DNA from: a virus | Lineage: Duplodnaviria; Heunggongvirae; Uroviricota; Caudoviricetes | Length of the DNA: 19,222 nt | IMG/VR virus record: IMGVR_UViG_2526164693_000012 | Direction: 5' to 3' (one strand) | In this document: positions 9,988 to 12,729 of the stretch, one piece after another | Position numbering within the stretch: the stretch's first letter is position 1 | Layout of the letters: each line of letters begins with the position of its first letter | Made by a program: the position numbers and the translations under genes | The notes under the pieces: model-generated | What the model saw: only the letters and a program-made list of their open reading frames with translations | What the model was told of the DNA's origin: nothing | Databases searched by the model: none

Positions 9988-10012
9988 AAAAAAACCCGGC
10001 ACAATGGCCGGG
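9988..10012 (-). terminator. Intrinsic terminator hairpin immediately upstream of the giant gene start
   Basis: Minus-strand CCCGGC-CATTGT-GCCGGG followed by TTTTTTT, then SD and the ATG at 9976; lies 30 nt after the stop of the 421-aa gene. Confidence 0.55.
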
Positions 10013-10045
10013 CATCAGGAAATGGTATTAATGGAATATCGTGAA

Positions 10046-11311
10046 TTACTGGGCGTAATTCTGTTTCAGTCCACGGATAAACTGAGATGCAGATGAAGCA
10101 CTTTCATCTCTGGCCTGTTCCCCCCTGGCCTTTTGAATACGGAGAAAATTCGCATACCCGTTCTCCAGCAATTTCTGATTCTGAGGTTCCAGCATTTCAG
10201 GCTGACGGGCCGCTACATTTCTGGCAAATGACAGCTTATCAGGATCATCTCCCGCCCAGTTGATAACCTGTTGCTGAAGTTTTTGTTGCTGAATTTTCTG
10301 TTGATGCGGTTGTGAACCAGTCGCAGCATAATATTCATCCACCGCAGCCTGAGCATTACCGCCATTCTTGATCGCGTCCGCCGCTACGTTGCTGGCCCCC
10401 TTCTGAAGCTCTTTCAGAGAAAGTCCCTGCTGCTTCGGCATAAAATAACCATAATTTTTCGATATCTCTGCAAATTTGCTGCGATCCCTGACCTGAGCGA
10501 TAGCCTTATCAACGGGTATCGCCAGCACGGTTTGATCATCAGGGTGCGCACTGCCGTATTCTGTTACAGGTTTATGCGCGGTGGAGCCATCGCTGTATGT
10601 GAGATCAAGGCCAATAAGTACGTACCCTTCCTGCTGCGCTGGTACGATACTGCCAATCCTGGCCTCTTTTATCGTTTTGTCCCCGGTTGAATCAGGCATG
10701 CCAATACGCTGTTGTAGTTCCGGGGCAAACACGCCGGAAAGCACATCGAGATTTTCCGGGGTATTCAGCGAATCGATCGCCATGTCCGGCTTATCACCAA
10801 AGATTTTTTGCAGGTTGATCACGGCCTGACCCGCTTTCGCTGCATAGCCTTCGTTTGACATAAGAATTAATGGATGTCCCTTTGGCAGCTGCCCGAACAG
10901 ACGCGTTGCAGCCTCCTGATCGCCAGCCTCAATTGCTTTTCCAAGCGCTTCCATTAGTGGCTGGCTATGGGCAATCATATCGTTATACTCAAGCCGTCGC
11001 TGGTTGTATTTCTGCAACTGGAGTCGCTGCTGCTCCATACCCAGTGACGCATTCCGGTAATTCTGGTTAGCGTTAAACTCCCTCTCCTTCAGTGCATAAT
11101 TACGGTCGTCAACTTTGGCTCTGTAATCAAAGTTCCGCTGATCAACGTTTTTATTATGTTCAAACTGAGACTGCGCAAACTCAAAATCGCGCTCGTTATT
11201 TTTCTGTTGCCGGGCAAGCTGTGCTTCACGCAGACCAAGCTCCTTACGACGGGTCATTGCCTGGTCAACGGTGCTGAATCCGGCAAGTAACCCCTGTGCA
11301 AATCCGCTCAT
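10046..11311 (-). CDS. Hypothetical protein, 421 aa, Gln/Asn-rich with predicted coiled-coil character
   Basis: Long ORF; SD AAGGAG 7 nt upstream of the ATG, overlapping the stop of the preceding gene (TAAGGAG); composition rich in Q, N, E, R with many QQ/NQ runs. Confidence 0.8.
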   Translation of the reverse strand: MSGFAQGLLAGFSTVDQAMTRRKELGLREAQLARQQKNNERDFEFAQSQFEHNKNVDQRNFDYRAKVDDRNYALKEREFNANQNYRNASLGMEQQRLQLQKYNQRRLEYNDMIAHSQPLMEALGKAIEAGDQEAATRLFGQLPKGHPLILMSNEGYAAKAGQAVINLQKIFGDKPDMAIDSLNTPENLDVLSGVFAPELQQRIGMPDSTGDKTIKEARIGSIVPAQQEGYVLIGLDLTYSDGSTAHKPVTEYGSAHPDDQTVLAIPVDKAIAQVRDRSKFAEISKNYGYFMPKQQGLSLKELQKGASNVAADAIKNGGNAQAAVDEYYAATGSQPHQQKIQQQKLQQQVINWAGDDPDKLSFARNVAARQPEMLEPQNQKLLENGYANFLRIQKARGEQARDESASSASQFIRGLKQNYAQ

Positions 11312-11321
11312 TCACCACTCC

Positions 11322-11573
11322 TTAAAACAAAGAACCAGCAATGCCGCCAATTACTGCTCCAGCAACAGCACCAACAGGACCACCAACGGATGCGCCAATA
11401 GCCGCCCCCGTACCAATGCCCGTACCGATATTCTGCTTGTTCTGCGCTTTCTGTTGCGCCGCCATCTGTTTGTTCGCAGCCTCAATTTCTTCACGTCGTC
11501 TGTCTGCGTCACTTATTCCCTGTAATGCCTCACGCCGCGACTGATTTGCAATATCCAGTAAACCGTATCCCAT
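11322..11573 (-). CDS. Small protein, 83 aa, with C-terminal glycine-zipper membrane segment
   Basis: C-terminus GTGIGTGAAIGASVGGPVGAVAGAVIGGIAGSLF is a GxxxG-repeat glycine zipper; N-terminal half is charged and helical-looking; SD AAGGGGG overlaps the upstream stop. Confidence 0.75.
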   Translation of the reverse strand: MGYGLLDIANQSRREALQGISDADRRREEIEAANKQMAAQQKAQNKQNIGTGIGTGAAIGASVGGPVGAVAGAVIGGIAGSLF

Positions 11574-11582
11574 ATTGCCCCC

Positions 11583-12029
11583 TTACGCTGCCACCAGTTG
11601 GCCGCCAACACTCAGTTTCTGTCTTGCCGGTGCAGAAGCCCCCGTCAGAATATTCATCTGGCGATCCTGTTCGGCTTCACGGATACCATTTTTCGCGCCA
11701 GCAATTGCCAGGGCATTACGTAACCCCAGCGTATTACTGTCGGGATTATCCGGGCGGTTTACCCCGTATCTCGCCATCTGGTTATCCTGCGCCATCTGCG
11801 CTGTACGGAGACTGGAAGTGGCAAGGCCTCCCACCCGTGCAAGCTGTGCATTCATCAGACTGTTGTTCTCCCCAAGGTCAGCCAGCCTTGCCACGCGGGG
11901 CAAATATCTGGTTCGCCAGTCGTCGTATTGTTGGCGTGTCAGCGCTGCTGACGTCTGCCAGTCACCCTGTGGGCGGTCTGCTCCTGAATAACCAGCCCTT
12001 GCGAGAGTTTCGTATTTGCCATACTCCAT
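11583..12029 (-). CDS. Hypothetical protein, 148 aa
   Basis: ORF with SD GGAGAC 8 nt upstream; its ATG lies 2 nt after the stop of the upstream gene (TAATTATG), indicating translational coupling. Confidence 0.75.
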   Translation of the reverse strand: MEYGKYETLARAGYSGADRPQGDWQTSAALTRQQYDDWRTRYLPRVARLADLGENNSLMNAQLARVGGLATSSLRTAQMAQDNQMARYGVNRPDNPDSNTLGLRNALAIAGAKNGIREAEQDRQMNILTGASAPARQKLSVGGQLVAA

Positions 12030-12031
12030 AA

Positions 12032-12688
12032 TTACAGTCTCCAGTTCTGAGCCTGATGCTGAATGGCATTAGCGCCGGTGCCAGGTGTTTTAGCACCGCC
12101 ACTTCCTCCGCTACCGCCAGCCTTATGCATCGCATATGCACCTGCCGCACCCAGACCAGCGCCAACAAGAGAGGCTCGCCCCTGCTGTTTCGTAAACGCC
12201 GCCTGTGCATCCGATTTAGCTTTTGCCAGACTGCTGTCTGCCAGAGAGTTAAAACTCTGTAACGCATCCGCCTTCTGACCAGAACCGAGAGCAGCAACAT
12301 CCTGTAGCCCGGCAACATACTTATCTGCCTGCGATACCTGCCCCCGTGTGGTTGTGTCAATCTGCCCGGTTACCTGGTCACTCTGGTTCGCATTCATTAC
12401 CGCATTAAAACGACCACTGGATGGGTCAACGCCGGACTGAGCAAGATTACCCGCAAGCTCCTTCCGTGCTTCGCCAAACTGTTTCTGATACCCCAGATTT
12501 GTGGTGCCAGCAATATTGTCGTACTGCTGCTCACTGTTCAGGTCATCGACCTTTTCCATGAAGTTATCTTCAGCCGGGCGGAGGATATTTTTGTAATCCT
12601 GCCACCCTTTCCAGGCCACTTCTTCCTGTGCTATTTGCGCTGCTGTTGGTTTTACTTTGGTATCACCACCGCCTTTACTTCCACCCAT
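12032..12688 (-). CDS. Hypothetical protein, 218 aa, Gly-rich at both termini (N-terminus MGGSKGGGDTKVK...)
   Basis: Start placed at ATG 12688 (SD AGGGGG 5 nt upstream), not at the track's ATG 12763, because a terminator hairpin sits between them; C-terminal Gly/Ala-rich tract GAGLGAAGAYAMHKAGGSGGSGGAK. Confidence 0.7.
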   Translation of the reverse strand: MGGSKGGGDTKVKPTAAQIAQEEVAWKGWQDYKNILRPAEDNFMEKVDDLNSEQQYDNIAGTTNLGYQKQFGEARKELAGNLAQSGVDPSSGRFNAVMNANQSDQVTGQIDTTTRGQVSQADKYVAGLQDVAALGSGQKADALQSFNSLADSSLAKAKSDAQAAFTKQQGRASLVGAGLGAAGAYAMHKAGGSGGSGGAKTPGTGANAIQHQAQNWRL

Positions 12689-12704
12689 AATGGCCCCCTG
12701 GATA

Positions 12705-12729
12705 ACAAAAAACCCTGCCGGAGCAGGGT
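12705..12729 (-). terminator. Intrinsic terminator after the 133-aa moron, directly upstream of the five-gene block
   Basis: Minus-strand CCCTGC-TCCG-GCAGGG followed by TTTTTTGTT; the first gene of the block starts about 17 nt after the T-tract. Confidence 0.55.

Follow-up and report, generated by a model that had tools for sequence, protein, structure and literature searches.

In phage lambda, RNA polymerase that has travelled past tR' is modified by the Q protein and is resistant to terminators. Internal operon attenuators, such as the T7 terminator after gene 10 and the terminator within rpsU-dnaG-rpoD, set expression ratios. Reviews of lambdoid phages describe Q as permitting read-through of downstream terminators, and morons, as a general rule, as bringing their own promoter and terminator (PMC3594210, PMC8065619). 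For the Shiga toxin (Stx) phages of Escherichia coli strain Sakai, it has been documented that transcription ends prematurely at tR' in lysogens and that antitermination depends on Q, and a Term-seq dataset for the strain exists (GEO GSE143631, PMC7547250). This work concerns two terminator-like hairpins, T1 and T2, each located between co-oriented genes in a 19,222-nucleotide stretch of viral DNA (IMG/VR record IMGVR_UViG_2526164693_000012), the whole of which is referred to as the window. The window spans the distal end of the late operon in a Stx phage of the Sp5/933W type, and its 5-kb core is 100% identical to short-tailed Stx-converting phages of the Sp5, VT2-Sakai and 933W type (Sepvirinae, Traversvirus). 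Relative to the phage map it is in reverse-complement orientation, and the late genes therefore lie on the minus strand. A preliminary description of the window had placed hairpins with T-tracts at 12705..12729 and 9988..10012, and both were present on the coding strand as described.

T1 (12704..12730, minus strand) is found between the '133-aa' gene and a 218-aa gene, and consists of a stem ACCCUGC/GCAGGGU (12729-12712; 8 bp in the terminator test), a UCCG loop and a UUUUUUGUU tract that extends to 12704. Its folding energy is -15.0 kcal/mol (z = -4.3), and it begins 51-52 nt past the stop codon of the 133-aa gene (12784-12782). T2 (9988..10013, minus strand) separates a 421-aa gene, which ends at 10046, from a giant 2793-aa gene, and begins 32 nt past the stop of the former. 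It comprises the 7 bp stem GCCCGGC/GCCGGGU (10013-9994), a CAUUGU loop and a U7 tract to 9988, with a folding energy of -13.6 kcal/mol (z = -3.1). Both have the structure of an intrinsic (Rho-independent) terminator, namely a G+C-rich stem-loop with a U-rich tract 3' of it on the transcribed strand. A strict scanner (stem of at least six pairs including at least four G-C, loop of 3-12 nt, at least six T in nine, and a folding energy of -9 or below) returned five such sites on the sense strand of the window, compared with 0.55 ± 0.70 expected from 100 dinucleotide shuffles (maximum 2). The five are T1 and T2, T_lom behind the lom gene, T_int inside the 133-aa gene and T_end, the last on this strand; four of the five are intergenic, 23-52 nt past stop codons. 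Literature searches found no paper describing these particular terminators. In the GER2 record (locus L003, 7502-7513; MG710528) a feature labelled 'attR' overlaps the T1 U-tract, which is probably an artefact of automatic att-site prediction.

The hairpins leave little space ahead of the next gene. From the end of the T1 U-run it is 8 nt to the Shine-Dalgarno (SD) sequence GGGGG (12698-12694) and 18 nt to the ATG of the 218-aa gene at 12688, and from the end of the T2 U-run 2 nt to the SD sequence GGAG (9985-9982) and 11 nt to the ATG of the giant gene at 9976. Measured from the stem, the next ATG is only 17-22 nt away at T1 and T2 alike. Because 17-22 nt cannot hold a sigma-70 promoter plus a leader, a promoter of their own behind the hairpins is excluded for the downstream genes, and one placed 5' of the hairpin would transcribe the terminator too. 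A promoter scan between each hairpin and the next ATG gave nothing promoter-like. Independent promoters immediately downstream of the hairpins, which the preliminary description had set against its own proposal of read-through, were thus rejected on geometry and on the scan. A leaderless start at ATG 9976 with TATGGA as the -10 element was likewise rejected, there being no -35 element.

The SD and ATG (9976-9974) of the giant gene form a block (9974..9985, minus strand) that is invariant in all variants, GGAG-N5-ATG at 9976 being kept among relatives, and the same ribosome binding site and start are annotated in RefSeq NC_049922. A start at ATG 10015, used in older records and placing T2 inside the coding sequence (CDS), was rejected because relatives have ACG at this position; the T-run, moreover, is 7-10 nt long in relatives, which is not a multiple of three, and the region is therefore non-coding. 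In AP000363 the start of the giant gene is set 39 nt too early, putting T2 in the CDS. In an Aeromonas record (locus L054, 9546-11541; KT898134) it is set ~1.7 kb too late, the giant open reading frame (ORF) being open from ~9.8 kb with GAGGA-N4-ATG right behind the hairpin. T2 and its positional equivalents thereby correct mis-set giant-gene starts in several database records.

The genes that follow the hairpins are required by the phage. Systematic in-frame deletions in Sp5 showed that ECs1241 (ORF79), the 421-aa gene whose stop precedes T2 (10046..11311, minus strand), and ECs1242 (ORF80), the giant gene with its LPD5 domain (1595..9976, minus strand), are essential for tail formation (Mondal 2016, PMC5155283). 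An ORF76 deletion mutant of Sp5 was strongly reduced in infectivity (PMC5155283). By consecutive numbering from the anchor ECs1236 = lomW (PMC2241611), ORF76 would correspond to ECs1238, the 218-aa gene directly 3' of T1 (12032..12688, minus strand). Expression data are available for the near-identical phage phi24B, in which lom lies 3.6 kb upstream of an 8-kb gene, CM7, on the same strand (PMC3342100); CM7 is the equivalent of the giant gene. By RT-qPCR, lom was equal in lysogens and after induction, whereas CM7 rose significantly only upon induction, a result the authors found surprising for a gene downstream of lom (Riley 2012, PMC3342100). RNA-seq agrees that lom is constitutive (Veses-Garcia 2015, PMC4651098). 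Constitutive lom alongside induction-only CM7 would be explained by the series of terminators that lies between lom and the giant gene.

The upstream parts of a Q-controlled operon are present on the same strand. In AP000363 the Q CDS is annotated 25-28 kb upstream of T1 and T2 and is followed by three terminator-like hairpins before stx2A, and pR' and tR' are documented (PMC7547250). From Q to the end of the late region of this genome there are ~10 intergenic sense-strand terminator-like sites: the three between Q and stx2A, two after stx2B, one each after orf51 and orf54, and T_lom, T1, T2 and T_end. For the hairpins between Q and stx2A the folding energy is -12 to -14 kcal/mol; T1 and T2 are in the same range of energy and U-tract. 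Within the AP000363 late region (locus L137), the hairpin behind orf51 lies 17 nt past the stop codon (12472-12495), that behind orf54 at 15315-15333, and a further sense-strand terminator-like hairpin is located inside the holin gene S (5231-5260).

Taken together, T1 and T2 are probably real terminators that halt unmodified polymerase in the lysogen and that Q-modified polymerase reads through once the prophage is induced. They would act as functional Rho-independent terminators within a ~36-kb late operon, among ~10 such sites. Ordinary RNA polymerase that starts in the lysogen from the constitutive lom or hok-like promoters, or from stray internal ones, would meet T_lom, the intragenic T_int, T1 and T2 in that order and stop at the hairpins, and the tail genes, above all the 8.4-kb giant gene, would stay silent. 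Upon induction, polymerase having loaded Q at pR', 25-28 kb upstream, would be terminator-resistant and pass all of the hairpins, and this would be the only route to the essential genes behind them. The best explanation is read-through by Q-modified polymerase, because a promoter would not fit behind the hairpins, essential genes lie downstream, and the giant gene depends on induction with lom constitutive; on these grounds we infer termination in vivo, read-through and Q dependence at T1 and T2. The arrangement resembles the lambda system: the phage is lambdoid, Q lies on the same strand upstream, and the late genes are reached only through intrinsic terminators. It differs in that T1 and T2 stand 25-28 kb past pR', in a structural gene array before start codons, rather than at the promoter-proximal tR', and in that their dependence on Q is presumptive. 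The principle of terminators in a lambdoid late operon, Q override and moron signals is already textbook, and it is the particular sites that are new.

Conservation of the hairpins was assessed in 46 IMG/VR loci from close relatives plus GenBank phages. The T2 stem occurs in three haplotypes among the 46 loci (GCCCGGC/GCCGGGT, ACCCGGT/GCCGGGT and GCCCGAC/GTCGGGC), with one pair showing a compensatory G-C to A-U change and the closing pair varying between G.U, A-U and G-C. No haplotype (0/3) has a broken pair and the U-tract is always 7-10 nt long, while the 3' untranslated region 5' of the hairpin has diverged to ~80% identity among close relatives. The tail module also has homologues in phiARM81mr, a lambdoid phage of Aeromonas, and in a set of Vibrio phages, and an alignment-based scan added another ~34 distant loci, whose 421-aa proteins are 22-41% identical. 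At the junction of the 421-aa homologue and the giant gene, all relatives for which this junction was retrieved have a hairpin plus T-run. Among these hairpins there are nine sequence classes, and seven of the classes are unrelated in sequence to the Sp5 hairpin. Examples include GAGCCTGCTTATGCAGGCTT; GAACCGCTGATAGGCGGTTT; AAAGCCCYGA..GGTTCGCC..TCGGGGCTTT; GCCGAGTTGCGCC..GCGCACCTCGGC; AAGCCCCTAAATAGGGGCTT; GGCCGAAC..GTTCGGCC; and GAAGCCCGCCTAGTGCGGG. The Aeromonas-type class has compensatory changes of its own. Within the block that runs from the 133-aa to the 421-aa gene, the other junctions measure only 2-12 nt and have no hairpin. A contig scan with the 421-aa protein returned only L007 (NZ_JPLE01000287.1, 552 bp, Xanthomonas pisi), which encodes the first 136 residues at 98% identity and was set aside as most likely E. 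coli phage contamination.

Maintenance of structure over sequence, together with the position of T2, whose U-tract ends 2 nt short of the invariant SD-ATG block, is also what would be expected if the hairpins served mainly at the RNA level, as 3'-end stabilisers after processing of the late mRNA or as translation-initiation context for the next gene. This is improbable, since the U-tract is always 3' of the stem on the sense strand, a terminator-specific feature that a stabiliser does not need, and since the hairpin is 40-80 nt from the next start in L109, L127 and Vibrio D459, so that proximity to the SD is not conserved.

The junction occupied by T2 also accepts extra genes. In four loci (L120, L122, L132 and L135) an extra gene of 156-312 aa (~4400-6300 in each locus) lies exactly between the 421-aa homologue and the giant gene, with terminator-like hairpins on one or both sides, and the junction is for this reason regarded as an insertion hot spot. 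Hairpins of this kind could be inert scars of past moron insertions or recombination joints with no present function, and T_lom clearly came with lom. For T1, T2 and T_int, however, such an origin without function is very improbable indeed: compensatory substitutions keep all three, nine classes of hairpin, of unrelated sequence, occupy one and the same junction, and the pairing of T_int is retained though the encoded amino acids change.

T1 has a narrower distribution. Its stem is invariant across Stx phages, with loop and flanks variable, and in the more distant enterobacterial relatives L096 and L099 it reads AACCTGC/GCAGGTT, a compensatory C-G to A-U change. Homologues of T1 are found in L096, L099 and L107, all of which are without lom and hok, and this weakened the idea that T1 was acquired along with these two genes. 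The Aeromonas-type and Vibrio phages have no spacer at the T1 position, and T1 is specific to the enterobacterial clade. Three loci without T1 (L037, L047 and L052) are deletion derivatives and uninformative on its function.

The preliminary description had counted the 133-aa gene (125 aa from ATG 13159; 12782..13159, minus strand) among the morons that keep their own signals. This did not hold, as the gene belongs to the core module. A homologue was found in 80/80 loci searched, and its GC content matches that of the core genes. Its product is 41% identical to Aeromonas p64 (E = 1e-29) and weakly similar to Vibrio D459 _0015, and each of these genes is separated by 7-8 nt from the 218-aa homologue downstream of it. 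After these syntenic homologues were found, the reading of T1 as the terminator of a 133-aa-gene moron was rejected.

The 133-aa gene itself contains a terminator-like hairpin. T_int (13045..13083, minus strand; 13083-13054 in the strict scanner) lies ~75 nt into the CDS. Its folding energy is -17.8 kcal/mol, and the UUUUGUUUUG tract behind it encodes Phe-Cys-Phe. Nearly all relatives, from E. coli phages to Aeromonas-type and more distant ones, have such a hairpin, with stems that differ (GACGCCTGCC..GCAGGCGT; GACGCCATCCG..CGGGTGGCGT; GAAGCCTGC..GCAGGCTT; GAGTGCA..TGCATTC), and pairing is kept while the encoded residues vary (DACLKKQAF, DAIRNRVAF, EACLNKQAF, ECNNGDAF). In a gapless alignment of 22 sequences both sides change in 7/10 pairs, and 79% of cells are paired, a share that drops to 29-48% on sliding the partner columns. 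Covariation scores 0.242, compared with 0.110 for shuffles, and the observed score was reached by 0/500 of them, a control that shared ancestry can inflate, and the covariation is good but not conclusive evidence for kept pairing. T2 and T_int are ancient features of the tail module.

Several observations weigh against silencing in the lysogen as the full account of T2. T2-like terminators occur also where no constitutive upstream promoter is known: the Aeromonas-type operon is tightly packed from the tail fibre gene to the 421-aa homologue and nevertheless has one, as does Vibrio phage D459, in which no integrase or repressor is annotated. In addition, if all late transcripts are Q-modified, the terminators would be idle during lytic growth, and their conservation must be paid for in the prophage or at the RNA level. 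In favour of Q-type control, the lambdoid Aeromonas phage phiARM81mr carries a promoter-like site, a pair of tandem terminators and, after these, the holin gene, a layout like that of pR'/tR'. A Pfam search with Aeromonas p41 gave no Q-family match, which leaves a Q-like role for p41 without support from Pfam. Given the T2-like hairpins of moron-free relatives and of Vibrio D459, insulation of the lysogen is not the whole reason for T2. The proposal of the preliminary description, that downstream expression needs read-through as in a Q-antiterminated late operon, therefore stands in part: the lack of promoter room, the essential downstream genes and the same-strand Q favour it, and T2 extends beyond the logic of morons and lysogeny on which it drew.

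These same observations bear on whether T2, perhaps along with T_int and T1, is an attenuator, a programmed partial terminator that lowers downstream products in lytic growth, especially the 2793-aa protein. That every relative sampled, those without upstream morons included, has a T2-like hairpin at the equivalent junction, in a block whose other junctions are all short and hairpin-free, would suit such a role, as would its presence in Vibrio D459, where the terminator is followed by an AT-rich gap of ~80 nt. As in the T7 and rpsU-dnaG-rpoD attenuators, a canonical terminator stands between co-oriented genes at a junction that is conserved family-wide. In lambdoid members, however, polymerase past tR' should be Q-modified and this would counteract partial termination, here hypothetical, so that little attenuation is expected. 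The giant gene is moreover essential and its transcript is significantly up on induction (PMC5155283, PMC3342100). Attenuation in lytic growth, with T2 setting the level of the giant gene, is accordingly considered unlikely, although it is the leading alternative. A broader proposal can be put forward only tentatively, that across the Sepvirinae-type tail module and its Aeromonas and Vibrio relatives T2 and T_int are conserved internal transcription checkpoints that go beyond passive insulation, as attenuators or timing devices gating the giant virion protein. If so, the family would rely on dedicated processive antitermination or attenuation over >30 kb. The family-wide conservation of T2 and the embedding of T_int in a coding sequence might be mildly surprising to a specialist.

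The termination and Q read-through proposed for T1 and T2 have consequences for the Stx phages, since the Shiga toxin genes ride on the same late transcript, and the distance and number of terminators that Q-modified polymerase must cross define what makes toxin and virions. T1 and T2 are concrete, mutable targets for asking whether internal terminators silence costly or harmful tail genes in lysogens, and they allow a test of whether terminator-proof transcription really lasts ~36 kb. The positional conservation of T2, together with T_int, also provides annotation markers for a poorly understood tail module.

The gene order on the minus strand begins with a 567-aa internal virion protein, a 422-aa tail-tip fibre protein, a 75-aa gene, a 205-aa gene and lom, and continues with a small hok-like gene, the 133-aa gene, genes of 218, 148, 83 and 421 aa, and the 2793-aa gene. 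Within this array lom (ECs1236; 13613..14347, minus strand; Pfam Ail_Lom) has the properties of a moron. It is absent from the corresponding position in L096, L099 and the Aeromonas and Vibrio relatives, and it has a terminator of its own, T_lom (13565..13589, minus strand; 13589-13571 in the strict scanner), 23 nt past its stop codon. GC content falls to 0.34-0.45 over the 75-aa gene, the 205-aa gene and the 5' part of lom (window 13800-15450), compared with 0.50-0.58 in the neighbouring core genes, and this block is consistent with horizontal acquisition. Expression of lom is uncoupled from induction and tracks growth phase, which that of its neighbours does not (PMC2241611). The view of lom as a moron with its own signals was thereby borne out by T_lom and by constitutive expression (PMC3342100, PMC4651098, PMC2241611), its promoter being putative.

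The hok-like locus downstream of lom (13168..13529, minus strand), annotated in RefSeq as 'MokW-like host killing', is a second hok-like type I toxin mRNA, with a 46-aa ORF at 13380-13240. It matches the Rfam sok/hok-leader model at 35.6 bits (E = 1.5e-5), under the gathering threshold, and its two ends, 5' and 3', pair with each other in a fold of -155 kcal/mol (z = -6.8). Ahead of the 133-aa gene the mRNA lacks a U-tract terminator of its own; T_int and then T1 would be the first stops that its transcription meets. Compared with morons of the HK97/HK022 type, which are cassettes of promoter, gene and terminator placed between late genes, lom with T_lom fits, and the hok-like locus, a toxin mRNA that has a 5' end of its own, is self-contained. 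The correspondence does not extend to T2, which is tied to no moron in Sp5, to T1, which follows a core gene, or to T_int, which lies inside a core CDS.

The locus at 13168-13529 differs from the published hokW-sokW locus. A canonical hok/sok locus (Rfam sok, 113.5 bits) is located at 256-580 on the plus strand, opposite to the late operon, and contains a 51-aa ORF (425-580, plus strand) equal in length to the HokW studied in Sp5 (PMC8621323). Beyond the giant gene, a promoter-like TTGACC-18-TAACAT (1543-1514, minus strand) precedes small ORFs including orf72, which are followed by T_end (1114..1134, minus strand; identified by the strict scanner), and the arrangement across 1114-1543 recalls a moron cassette at the end of the operon. 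Two strong plus-strand hairpins with T-runs lie antisense to the late genes, one at 18399-18419 in the 216-nt gap before the 567-aa gene and one at 1565-1586 just beyond the stop of the giant gene, and these may block convergent or antisense transcription.

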